Part shown: one piece after another, positions 2,599 through 9,262 of the stretch
How the letters are laid out: every line of letters begins with the position of its first letter
Position numbering within the stretch: position 1 is the stretch's first letter
From: a virus
Lineage: Duplodnaviria > Heunggongvirae > Uroviricota > Caudoviricetes
IMG/VR virus record: IMGVR_UViG_3300011226_000028
DNA length: 9,262 bases
Direction: 5' to 3' (one strand)
Made by a program: the position numbers and the translations under genes
The notes under the pieces: generated by a model
Database searches by the model: none
What the model was told of the DNA's origin: nothing
Seen by the model: only the letters and a program-made list of their open reading frames with translations

Positions 2599-3333
2599 AT
2601 GTCTGACAACACCATCCCTGAATATCTGCAACCCGCACTGGCACAACTGGAAAAGGCCAGAGCCGCCCACCTTGAGAACGCCCGCCTGATGGATGAGACC
2701 GTCACGGCCATTGAACGGGCAGAGCAGGAAAAAAATGCGCTGACGCAGGCCGACGGAAACGACGCTGACGACTGGCGCACGGCCTTTCGTGCAGCCGGTG
2801 GTGTCCTGAGCGACGAGCTGAAACAGCGCCACATTGAGCGCGTGGCACGCCGGGAGCTGGTACAGGAATATGACAATCTGGCCGTGGTGCTGAATTTTGA
2901 ACGCGAACGCCTGAAAGGGGCGTGTGACAGCACGGCCACCGCCTACCGGAAGGCACATCATCACCTTCTGAGTCTGTATGCAGAGCATGAGCTGGAACAC
3001 GCCCTGAATGAAACCTGTGAGGCGCTTGTCCGGGCAATGCATCTGAGCATTCTGGTACAGGAAAATCCGCTCGCCAACACCACCGGCCATCAGGGCTACG
3101 TCGCACCGGAAAAGGCTGTCATGCAGCAGGTGAAATCATCGCTGGAACAGAAAATTAAACAGATGCAAATCAGCCTCACCGGCGAGCCGGTTCTCCGGCT
3201 GACCGGACTGTCAGTGGCAACACTCCCGCACATGGATTATGAGGTGACAGGCACACCGGCACAGCGCAAGGTGTGGCAGGACAAAATAGACCAGCAGGGA
3301 GCAGAGCTGAAGGCCAGAGGACTGCTGTCATGA
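2599..3333 (+). CDS. sid: P4 Sid-like external capsid size-determination scaffold protein, 244 aa
   Basis: ATG at 2599 with GAGGA about 9 nt upstream (the track ORF starts earlier at 2533); MSDNTIPEYLQPALAQLEKARAAH...; position immediately upstream of delta and psu in the conserved sid-delta-psu order; stop overlaps the delta start (ATGA). Confidence 0.8.
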   Translation: MSDNTIPEYLQPALAQLEKARAAHLENARLMDETVTAIERAEQEKNALTQADGNDADDWRTAFRAAGGVLSDELKQRHIERVARRELVQEYDNLAVVLNFERERLKGACDSTATAYRKAHHHLLSLYAEHELEHALNETCEALVRAMHLSILVQENPLANTTGHQGYVAPEKAVMQQVKSSLEQKIKQMQISLTGEPVLRLTGLSVATLPHMDYEVTGTPAQRKVWQDKIDQQGAELKARGLLS

Positions 3334-3830
3334 TTTACTGCCCGTCGTGTGGACATGTTGCTCACACCCGTCGCGCACATTTCATGGACGATGGCACCAA
3401 GATAATGATTGCACAGTGCCGGAATATTTATTGCTCTGCGACATTTGAAGCGAGTGAAAGCTTTTTCTCTGACTGTAAAGATTCAGGAATGGAATACATT
3501 TCAGGCAAACAGAGATACCGCGATTCACTGACGTCAGCCTCCGGCAGTATGAAACGCCCGAAAAGAATGCTTGTTACCGGATATTGTTGTCGGAGATGTA
3601 AAGGCCTTGCACTGTCAAGAACATCGCGGCGTCTGTCTCAGGAAGTCACCGAACGTTTTTATGTGTGCACGGATCCGGGCTGTGGTCTGGTGTTTAAAAC
3701 GCTTCAGACCATCAACCGCTTCATTGTCCGCCCGGTCACACCGGACGAACTGGCAGAATGCCTGCATGAAAAACAGGAACTGCCGCCAGTACGGTTAAAA
3801 ACACAATCATATTCGCTGCGTCTGGAATGA
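3330..3830 (+). CDS. delta: P4 Delta-like late transcription activator (two tandem Ogr-type zinc-finger domains), 166 aa
   Basis: Begins MIYCPSCGHVAHTRRAHF... (Ogr-like Cys cluster) and contains a second copy ...YCCRRCKGLALSRTSRRL...YVCTDPGCG; ATG overlaps the sid stop; lies between sid and psu. Confidence 0.8.
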   Translation: MIYCPSCGHVAHTRRAHFMDDGTKIMIAQCRNIYCSATFEASESFFSDCKDSGMEYISGKQRYRDSLTSASGSMKRPKRMLVTGYCCRRCKGLALSRTSRRLSQEVTERFYVCTDPGCGLVFKTLQTINRFIVRPVTPDELAECLHEKQELPPVRLKTQSYSLRLE

Positions 3831-3903
3831 GGGCTGCCGGTTAACACCGGCCGTCGCCGCACACCGTATTTTTATTCTTCAGCATGATGAGAAAGAGATA
3901 ACG

Positions 3904-4139
3904 ATGGAAAGCACAGCCTTACAGCAGGCCTTTGACACCTGTCAGAATAACAAAGCAGCATGGCTGCAACGCAAAAATGAGCTGGCAGCGGCCGAACAGG
4001 AATACCTGCGGCTTCTGTCAGGAGAAGGCAGAAACGTCAGTCGCCTGGACGAATTACGCAATATTATCGAAGTCAGAAAATGGCAGGTGAATCAGGCCGC
4101 CAGTCGTTATATTCGTTCGCATGAAGCCGTTCAGCACAT
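3904..4139 (+). pseudogene. psu: psu (P4 polarity suppression / capsid decoration, Rho inhibitor), 5' fragment interrupted by IS3
   Basis: MESTALQQAFDTCQNNKAAWLQRKNELAAAEQEY...HEAVQHI then runs directly into the IS3 terminal inverted repeat at 4140. Confidence 0.8.
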
Positions 4140-4169
4140 TGATCCTACCCACGTAATATGGACACAGGC

Positions 4170-5036
4170 CTAAGCGAGGTTCTGGTTTTCAAATTGTTCC
4201 GGACTGAGGCCGCCACACCAACTGTGCCGCCGCCACCGATTGTAATCACATTCGATATAATTAAACACCGTTGCCCGCATTATTTCCCGGCTGATAAAGT
4301 GTTCTCCATGGATACATTCCACTTTCAGCGAATGAAAGAAGCTTTCCACGCAGGCATTATCGTAGCAGCAACCTTTTGCGCTCATACTTCCACGCAGATT
4401 ATGCCGCTTCAGTTGCGCCTGATAATCTGCTGAACAGTACTGGCCTCCACGGTCCGTGTGAACGATAACGTTCCGGGGCCTCTTACGCCGCCACAGCGCC
4501 ATCTGCAGGGCATCGCAGGCCAGTTGCGCCGTCATGCGTGGCGACATTGACCAGCCAATAACGGCACGTGACCACAGGTCAATGACCACTGCCAGATACA
4601 GCCAGCCTTCATCTGTACGTAAGTACGTGATGTCTCCTGCCCACTTCTGGTTCGGGCCACTGGCGTAAAAATCCTGCTCCAACAGATTTTCTGACACAGG
4701 CAGGCCGTGTGCGCGGTAGCTGACCGGGCTGAACTTCCGGGAGGCCTTTGCCCTCAGTCCCTGACGGCGCAGGCTTGCCGCCACGGTTTTTACGTTAAAG
4801 GGGTAACCCTGAGCACGCAGTTCATCCGTCAGGCGTGGGGCACCGTAACGCTGTTTTGACCGGGTAAAAGCCGCGAGGACAACGCTGTCGCAGTGTTGGC
4901 GGAACTGCTGACGCGTGCTTATCCTTGTCCGCCGCTGACACCACGTATACCAGCCGCTGCGGGCCACCCGGAGCACGCGGCACATTGCTTTGATGCTGAA
5001 CTCAGCCTGATGTTTTTCAATAAAGACATACTTCAT
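4170..5036 (-). CDS. insF: IS3 OrfB (DDE transposase catalytic component; normally made as an OrfAB fusion by -1 frameshifting)
   Basis: 288-aa ORF with DDE-type motifs ([27 protein letters not shown]); overlaps orfA in the -1 frame as in the IS3 family. Confidence 0.85.
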
Positions 5037-5341
5037 TTCAGGCGCTTCGCGAAGTATGTCGCGGCCTTTTGGAGGATAGCCAGCTCTTCATCCCGTTCTG
5101 CCAGCTGGCGTTTGAGACGTGCAATCTCGGTAGACATCTCCAGTTCACGTTCAGAAGACGTCTGCTGATTTTGCTGTTTACTGCGCCAGTTGTAGAGCTG
5201 TGATTCATACAGGCTGAGTTCACGGGCTGCGGCAGTAACACCGATGCGTTCAGCAAGCTTCAGGGCTTCACTGCGAAATTCAGGCGAATGCTGTTTACGG
5301 GGTTTTTTACTGGTTGATACTGTTTTTGTCATGTGAGTCAC
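5033..5341 (-). CDS. insE: IS3 OrfA (helix-turn-helix transposase N-terminal component)
   Basis: [52 protein letters not shown]... matches IS3 OrfA as I recall it; leucine-zipper-like C-terminus; stop overlaps the orfB ATG (ATGA). Confidence 0.85.
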
Positions 5342-5396
5342 CTCTGACTGAGAGTTTACTCACTTAGCCGCGTGTCCACTATTGCTGGGTAAGATC

Positions 5397-5737
5397 ACAT
5401 CAGCATCCGCGACCGGCTGAATGATTTTATGCAGCAGCACGGCACAGTACTGGCGGCCGCACTGGCACCGGAGCTGATGGGCTACAGTGAGCTGACGGCC
5501 ATTGCCCGAAACTGTGCCATACAGCGTGCCACAGATGCCCTGCGTGAAGCCCTCCTGTCCTGGCTTGCGAAGGGGGAAAAAATTAATTATTCCGCACAGG
5601 ATAGCGACATTTTAACGACCATCGGATTCAGGCCTGACGCGGCTTCGGTGGATGACAGCCGTGAAAAATTCACCCCTGCGCAGAACATGATTTTTTCGCG
5701 TAAAAGTGCGCAACTGGCATCACGTCAGTCTGTGTAA
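5397..5737 (+). pseudogene. psu: psu, 3' fragment downstream of the IS3 insertion
   Basis: In-frame translation from about 5402 reads SIRDRLNDFMQQHGTVLAAALAPELMGYSELTAIARN...ASRQSV; the track ORF 5429..5737 is its ATG-initiated portion. Confidence 0.75.
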
Positions 5738-5772
5738 AATTCCCCGAAAATCCGCCTGTTTTTACTGAAAAA

Positions 5773-5799
5773 AGCCATGCATCGATAAGGTGCATGGCT
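5773..5799 (+). terminator. Putative intrinsic (possibly bidirectional) terminator hairpin downstream of psu
   Basis: Perfect 9-bp stem AGCCATGCA / TGCATGGCT with a 9-nt loop, preceded by an A run and followed by TT...GTTTT. Confidence 0.4.
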
Positions 5800-5901
5800 T
5801 TGCATGCGTTTTCCTGCCTCATTTTCTGCAGACCGCGCCATTCCCGGCGCGGCCTGAGCGTGTCAGTGCAACTGCATTAAAACCGCCCCACAAAGCGGGC
5901 G

Positions 5902-5920
5902 GGCGAGGCGGGGAAAGCAC
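5902..5920. other. P2/P4-type cos site (19-nt cohesive-end sequence)
   Basis: GGCGAGGCGGGGAAAGCAC matches the P2/P4 cohesive-end sequence as I recall it; GC-rich context, located just past psu as in P4. Confidence 0.6.
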
Positions 5921-6016
5921 TGCGCGCAAAAGGGGGGGCTATTAAATTTTTCTCTGGCTTGATGAATGATAACCAAACCAGAGAGGGCATGAGCTTTACG
6001 GAGTTTTATCAAGTAA

Positions 6017-7779
6017 TTATTGCGATGCGTCTTCTTTTAAAGCGATGCTTTGTTCTAAAGCTTCTTTTATGCGTTTAACGCATTCTGTTAGTTCAATTAT
6101 GGCTCCGCGTCGAAAAGAACTGTTAATTTTTTTATGATGAGCGTTTATGGCTGAATGTAGCTTCTTAAGGTATGGTAGTTCAGCAGAAAGGTAGTCCGCA
6201 AGATTTGAGAAGTTATAGAGTGATGATAGATGGTTTGAAAACAACTGAATATCGCGAATGGACCAAGTGTTTTTTATTCCATGTATGATTAGGTTTACAT
6301 CTAATGTTTCAAGTGGATTAAATTTGAATTTTGATTGATAAATATCCATATCAATAGCACTCCAACCGTTAACATTCATTTTTTCTTTCAATTCTTTTAT
6401 TTTCTCCTCCTTTATTATATCGCAATATTTATCAAGGAAGTAATTATGAAGTTCATTTCCTTCTCTCCTTAATATATGTGGTGGAATATTATCAATGTTG
6501 GGATTTGATTCTAGGAAATATTCTTTTATTTCTTCATTACTAAAGCTACGTTTGTTTTTTTCAATGGTTTTGTTGGTTAACCCTCTTATGCGAGGGATGT
6601 ATTTTGATTTTGAGAGTCTAATATAGTTGTTTGTAGCGATTAGCCAAGTAGATAGTGTCGGTGATGAAGTTTTTAGTATTACTTTTTTAATTTCATCCAA
6701 ATAATCATTTTCAGGTATATTATACCATTCCGGTTGTTTTAATGTGGCATAATCACTTTTTTTTAAAGGTTCTTGTGAATTGAATATGTATGGAATTATA
6801 TCCTTTTGAGATATCTCATTAAAACAATATGGAACCATTAAGTTGTTATAAGTCATATGAGCAGTGATATTTAAAAGGTTACTCTCTTCTTCGCTTATTT
6901 TATCTGGATCATTCTCAGATGAAGTCGTAAGTGTTTTGAAAGAAGATGTGATATAATTATGATGAAAATCATTCTCTTGATATGAAAATTTCTCTTTTAG
7001 TATTATATGAGCACAAAGTGAAGTGACTAGGTTTTTGATGTCTATATCAGAGATTTTTTGCTCAGGTTCTTGTTTTTCAAAAAGAGGTGTCAATTTTGAA
7101 ATTACTCTATTAATAATTCGTAGGTTTGTTTCTTCGAACCCAATAATAACCTGAGTGATTAAATATTTATGTCTCTCTTCTAATGGAGCCAGTTTTTGCT
7201 CTAATATATCGGTAAGGTTATTAATAGAGAAATATATTTCGTCGCTTACAACTTTTTCTTTATGACTTAATACCTCACTACTCTGCTTTGAAAAGTTACC
7301 CACTAAAATAAAGTCTAACCGATTATCATTTTGATAACTTTGTAGGCAAAAGGTTGCTATTTCATCTCTCAAAGATTGAGGGATTCTTTCTAGATCATCA
7401 ATGACAAAAACNNNNNNNNNNNNNNNNNNNNNNNNNNNNNNGCACCTGAAATGGTAGATATAATTTGTTCTGTCAACTTTCCAGTGCTTTCGTCTTGGGT
7501 TAATGCTGATGCAGCGCTTGAGGTTAAATCCCCAAGTTTTTTTATCTCTGAAGGGGTGTTTAGATACGTTATGCTTAGCATTCTATCTTTAAAATCTTGT
7601 AAACTGTTTAACCCAAGAACAGACAAATAAAAATGACTCGTATCTGAATAAAGTGTTCTAAATTCAGTTCGAAGGAAATATGTCTTACCTACACCCCATT
7701 CCCCATTTATTAATATCAGACCATCACGTTTCTCTTTCAATATACGAATCAATATAGATACTATAGTACCTTTGGTCAT
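6017..7779 (-). CDS. KAP-family P-loop NTPase, about 587 codons, interrupted by a 30-nt N run; candidate anti-phage defence cargo gene
   Basis: Walker A in the KAP-characteristic form GEWGVGKT (N-terminal ORF 7390..7779) and Walker B-like VFVIDDLER just downstream of the gap (extension of ORF 6017..7372); AGGAG with a 5-nt spacer before the ATG at 7779; strongly AT-rich (about 25% GC in a spot count) compared with flanking genes. Confidence 0.7.
7412..7441. other. Run of 30 N (unknown or masked bases) inside the KAP NTPase gene
   Basis: Literal n characters; the reading frames on the two sides differ by one position, so the true gap length is probably not 30 nt. Confidence 1.
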
Positions 7780-7808
7780 AAAAAGCTCCTTTCAAAATTC
7801 CATTATGA

Positions 7809-8984
7809 TTATTTTATTTTTGGATAAAGTAAGTCACTATACCACTGCATCATATGTAATCTTTTCTCTAAATATTGAGCATGATTATAAGTACCTCTTA
7901 TACTGTTTTTATCAACATGTGCTAATTGCATCTCAATCCATGCACTATCAAATCCATGTTCATGTAAGATTGTCGATAATGAATGTCTAAAACCGTGACC
8001 TGTAGCACGTCCTTTGTAACCAAGTAACTCAATTACTTGAGATACGCTTTCTTTTGAAATTGGTTTGCTACGATTGTTCCTTCCAATAAATATGTAGGGG
8101 TAATGGCCGGTAATAGGCTTGAGTTGTTCGAAAAGGGCAATTACCTGAGTAGATAAAGGAACAATGTGTGGCCTACGCATTTTCATCCTTTCTGCAGGTA
8201 TTTCCCATATGCCTTTCTCAAGATCAACCTCATTCCAAGTAGCCAAACGCATTTCCTGCGTTCTAACGCCGGTCAGCATAACTATCTTAGTAGCATTTTT
8301 AGTAATGATACTTCCGGTATACGCTTCCAAATCCTGAATGAAATGAGGTAGCTCTTCAGCGGATAAAAAAGGATGATGTTTTTGCTTAGGAACAGCCAGA
8401 GCGATGGCTAAATCAGGCGCAGGATTGTATTCAGCACGGCCAGTTATGATCGCATAGCGGTAGACTTCACCACATCTTTGCCGCACTTTTCTGGTCTTCT
8501 CTAATGCCCCACGCTTTTCTATTCTTCGCAATACTTCGAGCAGTTCTAATGGTTTAATTTCACTGATAGGGCGTTTACCAATGAAAGGGAATACATCTTG
8601 CTCAAAAGTCTTCATAATTTCTTCTCGATAGGCCACCGTCCAGCGGTCAGCTTTGTTGGTATGCCATTCTCGACATATTGCTTCGAAAGAATTTTCTGTT
8701 GATAGCTTTTGAGCGAGTCTTAAAGCTTTGCGTTCCTCTACTGGGTCAATGCCATTAGCAACCTGCTTACGGGCGATGTCACGCTTCTCACGTGCTTCTG
8801 CGAGGCTTACTAAATCATAGCTGCCAAATGACATTAACCGCGCTTTCCCAGCAAATCTGAAACGGAAACGCCAGCCTTTCGTGCCATCTGGATTGATAAG
8901 CAACGACAGACCTTGTCCATCGTTCAATGTGTATGGCTTGTCTTGTGGTTTTGCACGTTTGATCTGTGTATCGGTTAGAGCCAT
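7809..8984 (-). CDS. int: P4-type tyrosine integrase (phage integrase family), 391 aa
   Basis: N-terminus MALTDTQIKRAKPQDKPYTLNDGQGLSLLINPDG... typical of P4-like integrases; C-terminal catalytic region GHGFRHSLSTILHE...GTYNHAQY (R, H-x-x-R, Y); adjacent to the 3' end of a tRNA gene. Confidence 0.9.
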   Translation of the reverse strand: MALTDTQIKRAKPQDKPYTLNDGQGLSLLINPDGTKGWRFRFRFAGKARLMSFGSYDLVSLAEAREKRDIARKQVANGIDPVEERKALRLAQKLSTENSFEAICREWHTNKADRWTVAYREEIMKTFEQDVFPFIGKRPISEIKPLELLEVLRRIEKRGALEKTRKVRQRCGEVYRYAIITGRAEYNPAPDLAIALAVPKQKHHPFLSAEELPHFIQDLEAYTGSIITKNATKIVMLTGVRTQEMRLATWNEVDLEKGIWEIPAERMKMRRPHIVPLSTQVIALFEQLKPITGHYPYIFIGRNNRSKPISKESVSQVIELLGYKGRATGHGFRHSLSTILHEHGFDSAWIEMQLAHVDKNSIRGTYNHAQYLEKRLHMMQWYSDLLYPKIK

Positions 8985-9036
8985 GTGTATAACTGAAAAC
9001 TATGTATAAAAAATCTATACACATTACTATACATAT
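8983..9036. promoter_or_regulatory. Cluster of TATACAYAT 9-mers in both orientations over the int start and upstream region; candidate Int/Vis or repressor binding sites and int promoter
   Basis: ATGTGTATA (8983-8991), TATGTATA (9001-9008), TATACACAT (9016-9024) and TATACATAT (9028-9036); AT-rich. Confidence 0.4.
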
Positions 9037-9146
9037 TTTTCGCGGATTCAGGGAGATGATCTCGGACTATTACGGACAAGCTGATTATTCATCGCATTGA
9101 ATATAAATGATTTTATGGAGTGTCTCGGAACTGGCTGGATGAGGTT

Positions 9147-9241
9147 TGGCGGAAGATCACAGGAGTCGAACCTGCCCGGGACCGCTGGCGGCCCCAACTG
9201 GATTTGAAGTCCAGCCGCCTCACCGGAGACGACGATCTTCC
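9147..9241 (-). tRNA. selC: tRNA-Sec (selenocysteine tRNA, selC), 95 nt, serving as the integration site
   Basis: Reverse complement reads GGAAGATCGTCGTCTCCGGTGAGGCGGCTGGACTTCAAATCCAGTTGGGGCCGCCAGCGGTCCCGGGCAGGTTCGACTCCTGTGATCTTCCGCCA, matching the E. coli selC tRNA as I recall it, including the long variable arm and 3' CCA; the integrase gene lies beyond its 3' end. Confidence 0.9.
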
Positions 9242-9262
9242 GCGCCTCGATTGCTACATGGA

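Follow-up and report, generated by a model that had tools for sequence, protein, structure and literature searches.

The DNA analysed here, a stretch of 9,262 nucleotides (nt) from the IMG/VR virus record IMGVR_UViG_3300011226_000028 (hereafter the window, always meant at its full length), is, as judged from its sequence, a P4-like satellite prophage integrated at selC, the selenocysteine tRNA gene, of Escherichia coli. The stretch between cos, which lies by psu, and the integrase gene int is replaced wholesale among otherwise homologous elements. Of the many cargos known to alternate there, that of the window is a single P-loop ATPase gene. We interpret positions 5928–7820 as cargo in the defence hotspot of this selC-integrated satellite and put the probability of that reading at about 0.9. 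The psu–int locus of P4-like satellites, beside cos, is a published hotspot and reservoir of anti-phage systems, in which over 300 different arrangements of genes were counted across 5,251 E. coli loci (Rousset 2022, Cell Host Microbe, PMC9122126). A second paper deals with the same kind of element (de Sousa 2026, NAR, PMC13586616).

Exchange of the cargo between cos and int

A megablast search with positions 5700–8100 against 5,426 complete E. coli genomes recovered the psu–cos flank in 2,252 of them and the whole stretch in 11; a twelfth genome was matched over 79% of the query. As comparators we took five P4-like elements that are integrated at selC but carry unrelated cargos. These encode a 474-amino-acid (aa) hypothetical protein, a reverse transcriptase with a SLATT protein, an AIPR protein, an AAA ATPase with an HNH protein, and a pentapeptide-repeat protein with a hypothetical protein. 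Each of the five ceases to align with the window at 5926–5931 and aligns again from 7818–7839, leaving unrelated contents between homologous flanks. The cargo of the window lies between psu/cos and int and abuts cos, the variable DNA beginning at 5928.

A first-pass annotation, made from the sequence alone, had proposed that a horizontally exchanged, one-gene cassette interrupts a conserved backbone, and had suggested an alignment of related selC elements with different cargos. That alignment bears the proposal out: the elements cease to be homologous at either end of a slot filled by unrelated genes, and the ATPase gene is not part of a continuous, uniformly conserved backbone. The cassette comprises an 89-nt 3′ stretch with a hairpin, the single 588-aa ATPase gene, a 29-nt spacer and the last 3–10 codons of int with the stop codon, so the module does hold one gene plus the tail of int. 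The same annotation expected the breaks exactly at two points, next to cos and at the int stop codon. The left one was indeed found next to cos; the right one lies 3–10 codons before the int stop, inside the gene, and is set by homology, not by composition. The C-terminal tail of Int differs with the type of cargo (PKIK, PAD, PGDL, KSLER and SFF among others).

On the left, the 19-nt cos cohesive end GGCGAGGCGGGGAAAGCAC occupies 5902–5920, and position 1 of the P4 record aligns to window position 5902. Backbone homology stops at TGCGCGC (5921–5927), homology of reference P4 to the window being lost at 5930. Since the cohesive end is at 5902–5920 and the cassette starts at 5928, variable DNA begins 7 nt past the cohesive end. 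Further left, the psu flank (5398–5737) is 96–98% identical to that of other P4-like elements and of P4.

Cargo swapping would proceed through recombination in the two flanks. The left edge would be held in place by the need to keep cos for packaging, and the right edge by the need for a working Int. As to a source, no donor element emerged when collections of plasmids and phages were searched with the cargo by tblastn, which gave only relatives with at most 30% identity.

Base composition of the cassette and its flanks

The contrast drawn by the first-pass annotation between an AT-rich cargo gene and a GC-rich sid was confirmed. The guanine plus cytosine (GC) fraction is 0.314 in the cargo gene (6017–7779), down to 0.22–0.27 in 60-nt segments and 0.25 at third codon positions (GC3), against 0.573 in sid. 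Values of 0.50–0.55 were obtained for the psu fragments and 0.558 for the cos region. The backbone has 53–57% GC versus about 31% in the AT-rich block; backbone GC3 is 0.53–0.65, except in delta (0.47). For the cassette as delimited by homology (5928–7820), GC is 31.6%.

Maximum-likelihood segmentation of the whole window placed the strongest change-point at 5940 (2-log-likelihood support 5937–6006; log-likelihood ratio 131.9), some 13 nt further on than the point by cos where homology to the backbone stops. This ratio is above those of all 500 shuffles, 300-nt block shuffles included (maximum 108), and a Fisher test on GC across 5945 gave p = 3e-5, in agreement with the sharp drop that had been predicted near 5945. 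A second compositional border, claimed at the int stop codon, was rejected by Fisher tests and change-point analysis. GC is 0.330 and 0.333 in the 300 nt on each side of 7809 (Fisher p = 1.0), and the right change-point falls inside int, at 7993–8097 (support 7911–8116), low GC extending 100–300 nt into the gene.

The integrase gene is intermediate overall (GC 0.415, GC3 0.34) and forms a gradient, with values of 0.32, 0.40, 0.42, 0.43, 0.47 and 0.45 in 200-nt blocks counted from its 3′ end. The integrase genes of the selC elements all have 40–43.5% GC and an AT-rich 3′ end. In P4, the cargo has 36% GC, int 46% with 33% in its 3′-most 200 nt, and the remainder 55%. Six other cargos at the selC slot all have 29–35% GC next to a left flank of 53–55%. 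Because all sampled cargos are AT-rich, AT-richness is a general trait of the cargos of this slot and not special to the ATPase gene; likewise, the GC gradient is common to integrases with any cargo and therefore belongs to the integrases, not to this particular cargo. The pattern fits a common reservoir of AT-rich mobile genes, whose passage from one element to another would outpace the adjustment of their base composition to the host.

AT-rich composition alone is no proof of transfer, and the core gene int likewise has less GC than the backbone. Low GC might accordingly be viewed as intrinsic to the gene or as regulatory, in a backbone gene passed on vertically, with no mark of horizontal exchange. 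We give this explanation practically no credit: homology breaks at both ends, unrelated genes share the slot, and the cargo is present in less than 1% of the genomes that have the flank. These counts and break points already refute it.

A second AT-rich stretch was observed at 2100–2500 (GC about 0.34–0.40), between the AlpA-like gene and sid. Its counterpart in P4 is the region annotated as replication origin (record positions 9086–9809, with type 1 and type 2 repeats), and it is backbone, not cargo.

Integrase divergence and the right border

The right border is less distinct than the left one. Identity of the comparators to the window is 93–100% from the tRNA gene to the 5′ third of int (8600–9262), 80–90% through the middle and 3′ part of int (7909–8600), and 65–77% in its last 100 nt; int is not a well-conserved backbone. 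The gene is also a mosaic when set against five elements (L003–L007), with 93–100% identity in the 5′ third and on the attL side and 80–90% in the catalytic 3′ two-thirds. At least 99% identity in int was found in 12 E. coli genomes, those with the ATPase cargo, and nearly all of the other 488 reach at most 90%.

Two observations count against a cassette that ends cleanly at the last codons of int. The border is blurred, with no GC step at 7809 and with int divergence rising towards the cargo, and linkage between the ATPase cargo allele and a single allele of int is complete in E. coli. Given this linkage and the divergence gradient, some exchanges may have carried part of int along. The exchanged unit could accordingly be larger, consisting of the cargo and the 3′ half to two-thirds of int, with its true right border at about 8000–8600. 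In line with such a unit, the GC change-point lies at 7993–8097 and not at 7809, identity among selC elements changes at 8600, and 12 of 12 genomes with int at least 99% identical carry the ATPase cargo, almost all other int genes being at most 90% identical. In addition, some genomes (H86–H89) match int only from window position 8142 or 8539 onwards, which suggests recombination break points inside int.

Other data speak for the narrower unit. The AT-rich 3′ end and the GC gradient are shared by all int genes examined, irrespective of the cargo and even by the unrelated int of P4, and alignable homology resumes at 7818–7839 in five of five comparators. Moreover, integrases accompanied by unrelated cargos share 92–95% aa identity with that of the window, whereas those beside homologous cargos (L002 and L014) share only 89–90% and are no closer. 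Since int identity does not track cargo homology, the cargo moves independently of int. We consider the larger unit unlikely, though still a serious candidate, and retain 5928–7820 as the exchanged cassette.

The cargo gene and its product

As the first-pass annotation had recognised, the cargo gene starts about 30 bp after the int stop codon and has its own Shine–Dalgarno sequence. The stop codon of int is at 7809–7811 and the ATG at 7779–7777, with a gap of 29 nt in which AAGGAG is found at 7791–7786. Runs of N are present at two places in the window, with 10 bases at 2094–2103 and 30 bases at 7412–7441. The second run replaces 34 nt without preserving length and thereby splits the reading frame and simulates a frameshift. 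A two-ORF (open reading frame) cargo (7779–7390 and 7372–6017) was consequently rejected as an artefact; near-identical genomes have one intact 588-codon ORF.

The encoded protein possesses a Walker A motif, GEWGVGKT (residues 26–33), and a Walker B motif, VFVIDDLER (residues 125–133). We found 53 homologues, almost all in Enterobacterales, and aligned 30 of them; residues G26, G29, G31, K32 and T33 of Walker A and D129, D130, E132 and R133 of Walker B are invariant in 30 of 30. An AlphaFold2 model (mean predicted local distance difference test score, pLDDT, of 80) contains a disordered polar insert between the two motifs (residues 75–117; PSEIKKLGDLTSSAASALTQDESTGKLTEQIISTISGAMRDYV) with low pLDDT.

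Pfam matches to AAA_22 (PF13401) and KAP_NTPase (PF07693) were obtained. The latter is barely over threshold (20.7 bits versus a cut-off of 20) and covers residues 18–45 only; in the diverged allele of EC19 (L002) it reaches 22.1 bits over residues 5–135, and some homologues have a precomputed PF07693 match. In fold comparisons the model matches the human and Drosophila origin recognition complex (ORC; including the motor module 5uj7), Cdc6 and TnsC. Weaker matches were to a plant nucleotide-binding leucine-rich repeat protein (NLR) and to three ATPases of defence systems, RdrA, Avs3 and BrxC. All of these matches cover the generic AAA+ module only.

The C-terminal part of about 350 aa is all-helical in the model, and no Pfam, structural or solved-structure relative was found for it, structural matches ending at about residue 235. 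A Pfam scan of the C-terminal 399 aa (residues 190–588) with E values up to 10 returned only noise, and a profile of the 30 sequences run against solved structures gave nothing meaningful (best E 0.004, a ribosomal protein). The NCBIfam scan of the protein yielded only a sub-threshold match to an Hda-like P-loop family. With the PADLOC defence candidate PDC-S49 there is a half-length match (E = 1.2e-14), residues 22–317 aligning to profile positions 27–338 of 624; a literature search for "PDC-S49" found no papers.

Putative function of the ATPase

The ATPase would most probably act as a single-protein anti-phage sensor and switch. Its nucleotide-binding module, similar to those of ORC, Cdc6 and STAND (signal transduction ATPases with numerous domains) proteins, would oligomerise once the C-terminal helical domain detects a phage component. 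As a working mechanism, an NLR-like sensor and switch of this type seems to us somewhat better than an even bet, by analogy and by genomic location.

The same protein has been catalogued before. The first row of Table S1A in Rousset 2022 (PMC9122126) reads "NC_010468 AAA_22 WP_000160301", and Table S1B lists the same protein sequence as system #11, "AAA_22/NB-ARC", with 110 occurrences and a note that it is NLR-like. According to Table S2B it was cloned from strain ATCC 8739 as pFR82, "NOD-1", the insert extending from 152 nt upstream of the ATG, within the 3′ end of int, to psu. This plasmid is among the "additional tested systems", and no activity is reported for it on a panel of eight phages (PMC9122126).

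Several points weigh against a sensor and switch. No effector domain is recognisable, and the lack of any match for the C-terminal ~350 aa leaves the mechanism resting on analogy. Furthermore, a clone of this very protein that included the 152 nt naturally preceding the gene protected against none of the eight phages (Rousset 2022, PMC9122126), which leaves an anti-phage role of this allele putative.

The negative test would also suit a protein without a defence role, for example an accessory factor that, like ORC/Cdc6, TnsC or MuB, serves DNA transactions, here those of the satellite (such as packaging, the choice of a target or the initiation of replication), and it agrees with such a role that every close homologue context examined is a P4-like satellite with the gene beside int. 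The gene is dispensable and replaceable, however: most P4-like elements carry unrelated genes in its place, and reference P4 lacks it. Its position is an experimentally supported defence hotspot (PMC9122126; PMC13586616), there is the partial match to a PADLOC defence candidate, and the fold matches are limited to the generic AAA+ module. A further argument comes from Reve, a single gene of the P4 hotspot with ATPase and KAP P-loop domains, validated in 2026 (PMC13586616). In the preprint supplement, the block that matches Reve (pFD425) by listing order gives PF13401 and PF07693, with the human ORC ATPase motor module as top Foldseek hit, and pFD425 reduces plating of Drexlerviridae 10^2 to 10^6-fold (de Sousa 2026). 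A gene with the same annotation signature hence protects strongly, and we regard the accessory-factor explanation as improbable compared with a function in defence.

Linkage to int and possible read-through

In P4-like satellites, homologues of the cargo gene lie 10–45 nt downstream of int, on the same strand, in every context examined. These contexts are the window and ATCC 8739, EC19 (L002), Yersinia, Serratia fonticola, Citrobacter and Mangrovibacter, with 31–71% identity of the cargo, and they sit at several different attachment sites. In the Yersinia and Serratia fonticola elements (L009, L010 and L011), delta and sid-like genes were observed beside the cargo with no psu called between cos and delta; in contrast, psu is present in the elements of E. 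coli, Citrobacter and Mangrovibacter.

The first-pass annotation had suggested that the cargo might be read through from int. This is plausible: the cargo gene is 29 nt downstream on the same strand, a consensus scan detected no terminator-like site between the two genes, and they may be co-transcribed. In strain NCTC11476, an unrelated co-directional cargo overlaps the int stop codon by 4 nt. Read-through would not apply to the slot in general, as some other selC-slot cargos face int. Concerning a promoter within the 3′ end of int, a scan of 5700–9262 gave 12 sites versus 11.8 expected from shuffled sequence and, being at chance level, is uninformative. Promoter-like hexamers in this region (e.g., GTGACT-18-AATAAT at 7837–7808) are no commoner than chance. 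A literature search on transcription of the P4 int–cII region returned nothing usable.

Beyond the cargo, a G+C-rich hairpin followed by TTTT lies inside the conserved cos region, at 5883–5902, and its sequence is also present in P4 and in the EC19 element. It is possible that this hairpin terminates transcription of any cargo oriented towards cos. The hairpin within the cassette itself is specific to it, and the diverged allele of EC19 has a different one in the equivalent place downstream of the cargo.

The negative result of 2022 fits read-through, the clone having lacked the int promoter, and fits an unsuitable phage panel equally well. In a stronger form of this idea, the ATPase would be a dedicated P4-satellite protein, fixed downstream of int and read through from the int promoter. 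The 2022 clone would then have been silent for want of that promoter, and the C-terminal domain would be a new phage sensor or effector on an ORC-like switch. We hold this combination to be rather unlikely. If true, the level of the ATPase would follow integrase expression, i.e., the integration and excision state of the satellite. The family does lie directly downstream of int in all P4-like satellite homologues examined, and co-transcription could explain the earlier negative phenotype.

Features of the element and side observations

Reference P4 and the window share 96–98% identity in the backbone. P4-like satellites are recognised by psu, delta, sid, the immunity RNA and alpha-type backbone genes, and the element qualifies as one of them. 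Pfam matches in the window proteins are Psu, Ogr_Delta, sid, Phage_AlpA and DUF5375 (ORF106), and the gene order of P4 is kept, with equivalents of ORF151 and of the AlpA-like ORF88. The tRNA-Sec gene is the attachment site and the chromosomal border of the element. The element of ATCC 8739 (NC_010468, L001) is 99% identical to that of the window; identity is 98.6% over 5396–9262 and about 95% in the left part of the window, and the primase gene of ATCC 8739 lies just outside the region that matches the window. The coordinates of the main features are collected in Table 1.

Table 1. Features of the cos–int region and its surroundings in the window.
Feature	Position	Strand	Basis or remark
psu, 5′ part	3904–4139		Left of the IS3 insertion
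psu, 3′ part (left conserved backbone flank)	5398–5737	+	Pfam Psu, profile positions 85–181
Conserved cos region	5738–5927		Homology to six comparators ends at 5926–5931
G+C-rich hairpin followed by TTTT, inside conserved cos	5883–5902	− (cargo sense strand)	Consensus terminator scan only
Variable cassette (hotspot cargo), ~1.9 kb	5928–7820	−	Break points versus five unrelated-cargo elements and P4
13-bp hairpin, cassette-specific, 33 nt 3′ of the cargo stop codon, no U-run after it	5951–5984	−	RNA fold
Cargo gene, P-loop ATPase, 588 aa	6017–7779	−	WP_000160301 in close relatives, annotated "AAA family ATPase"
Shine–Dalgarno AAGGAG, 6 nt upstream of the cargo ATG	7786–7791	−	Read from sequence
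int, selC-type tyrosine integrase, 391 aa	7809–8984	−	Pfam Arm-DNA-bind_3, Phage_int_M, Phage_integrase
tRNA-Sec (selC)	9147–9241	−	ARAGORN, Rfam RF01852, RefSeq annotation of matching genomes

A complete IS3 of 1,258 bp is inserted at 4140–5397, flanked by a target duplication CAT (4137–4139 and 5398–5400), and many E. coli genomes have copies that match it at 100% identity. Because it splits psu, the satellite copy in the window is probably psu-defective; the element of ATCC 8739 has no IS3 in psu. Transposable elements are described as almost nonexistent in P4 and P2 (de Sousa 2026, PMC13586616).

The delta gene (3330–3830) encodes a protein of 166 aa with two Ogr/Delta zinc-finger units, as in P4, while the near-identical element of ATCC 8739 has a delta of only 81 aa (L001 positions 8206–8451). 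Homology between these two elements is lost across 3450–3918, and the backbone is therefore mosaic around delta too.

On the minus strand, Rfam models detect the P4-type immunity RNA C4 (74 bits), isrK (71 bits) and a1b1, the target of C4 (50 bits), at 1455–1542, 1641–1718 and 1679–1731. Large ORFs listed across this RNA stretch (e.g., 1203–1838) are probably not genes.

Comparison with known systems

Reference P4 (NC_001609) carries gop-beta-cII in the same slot between cos and int. Its cargo is likewise AT-rich (36% GC versus 55% in the rest of P4), and cII, like the cargo of the window, is co-directional with int, from which it is located 66 nt downstream. Unlike the latter, gop-beta-cII consists of three unrelated genes, two of which are transcribed from the cos side. 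With 37.5% aa identity, the P4 integrase is a member of another family, and its attachment site is not the same.

In KAP nucleoside triphosphatases (NTPases; PF07693), the P-loop domain is typically interrupted or followed by inserted transmembrane helices. The insert of the window ATPase at residues 75–117, judged by reading the sequence, is polar and not transmembrane. With STAND/NLR-like defence NTPases (Avs, NOD-like proteins and RdrA of RADAR) it shares a central NTPase that has a helical lid and both Walker motifs, A and B. It differs from them in having no detected tetratricopeptide, leucine-rich or WD40 repeats and no recognisable effector domain; the NTPase starts at residue 1, which leaves no room for an N-terminal effector.

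Reve is a close counterpart in annotation, and the two were compared by annotation only. Both are single genes in the P4 hotspot with the same Pfam pair and a fold match to ORC. They differ in outcome, Reve protecting against Drexlerviridae (PMC13586616) and NOD-1 showing nothing on a different eight-phage panel (PMC9122126). The shared annotation signature is a strong hint, not a demonstration, that the window ATPase is related to Reve.

With the published psu–int hotspot (Rousset 2022, PMC9122126; de Sousa 2026, PMC13586616) the agreement is complete in position, in the replacement by unrelated cargos and in the protein itself, which is listed there. Elements with identical core genes carry different defences and swap these loci fast, and new systems have been validated from unannotated P4 loci (de Sousa 2026, PMC13586616). 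Nothing essential sets the window apart from the published hotspot; in its copy, psu is interrupted by IS3, delta is 166 aa long and the cargo gene contains an N-run. The cassette interpretation is therefore already known, down to the exact locus and protein, and the finding is real but ordinary; since both had been catalogued and the protein tested once, little is gained in this respect. The GC statistics, the break points and the divergence gradient of int were measured here and were not found in the available portions of the two papers. They add base-level break points to the published hotspot, with the cargo extending from 7 nt past the cos cohesive end and the last 3–10 int codons variable, and show that the compositional border on the int side is a gradient parallel to the int divergence gradient. 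From the raw sequence alone, the defence hotspot of P4-like satellites was found again, a locus that is well established as a place to discover anti-phage systems.

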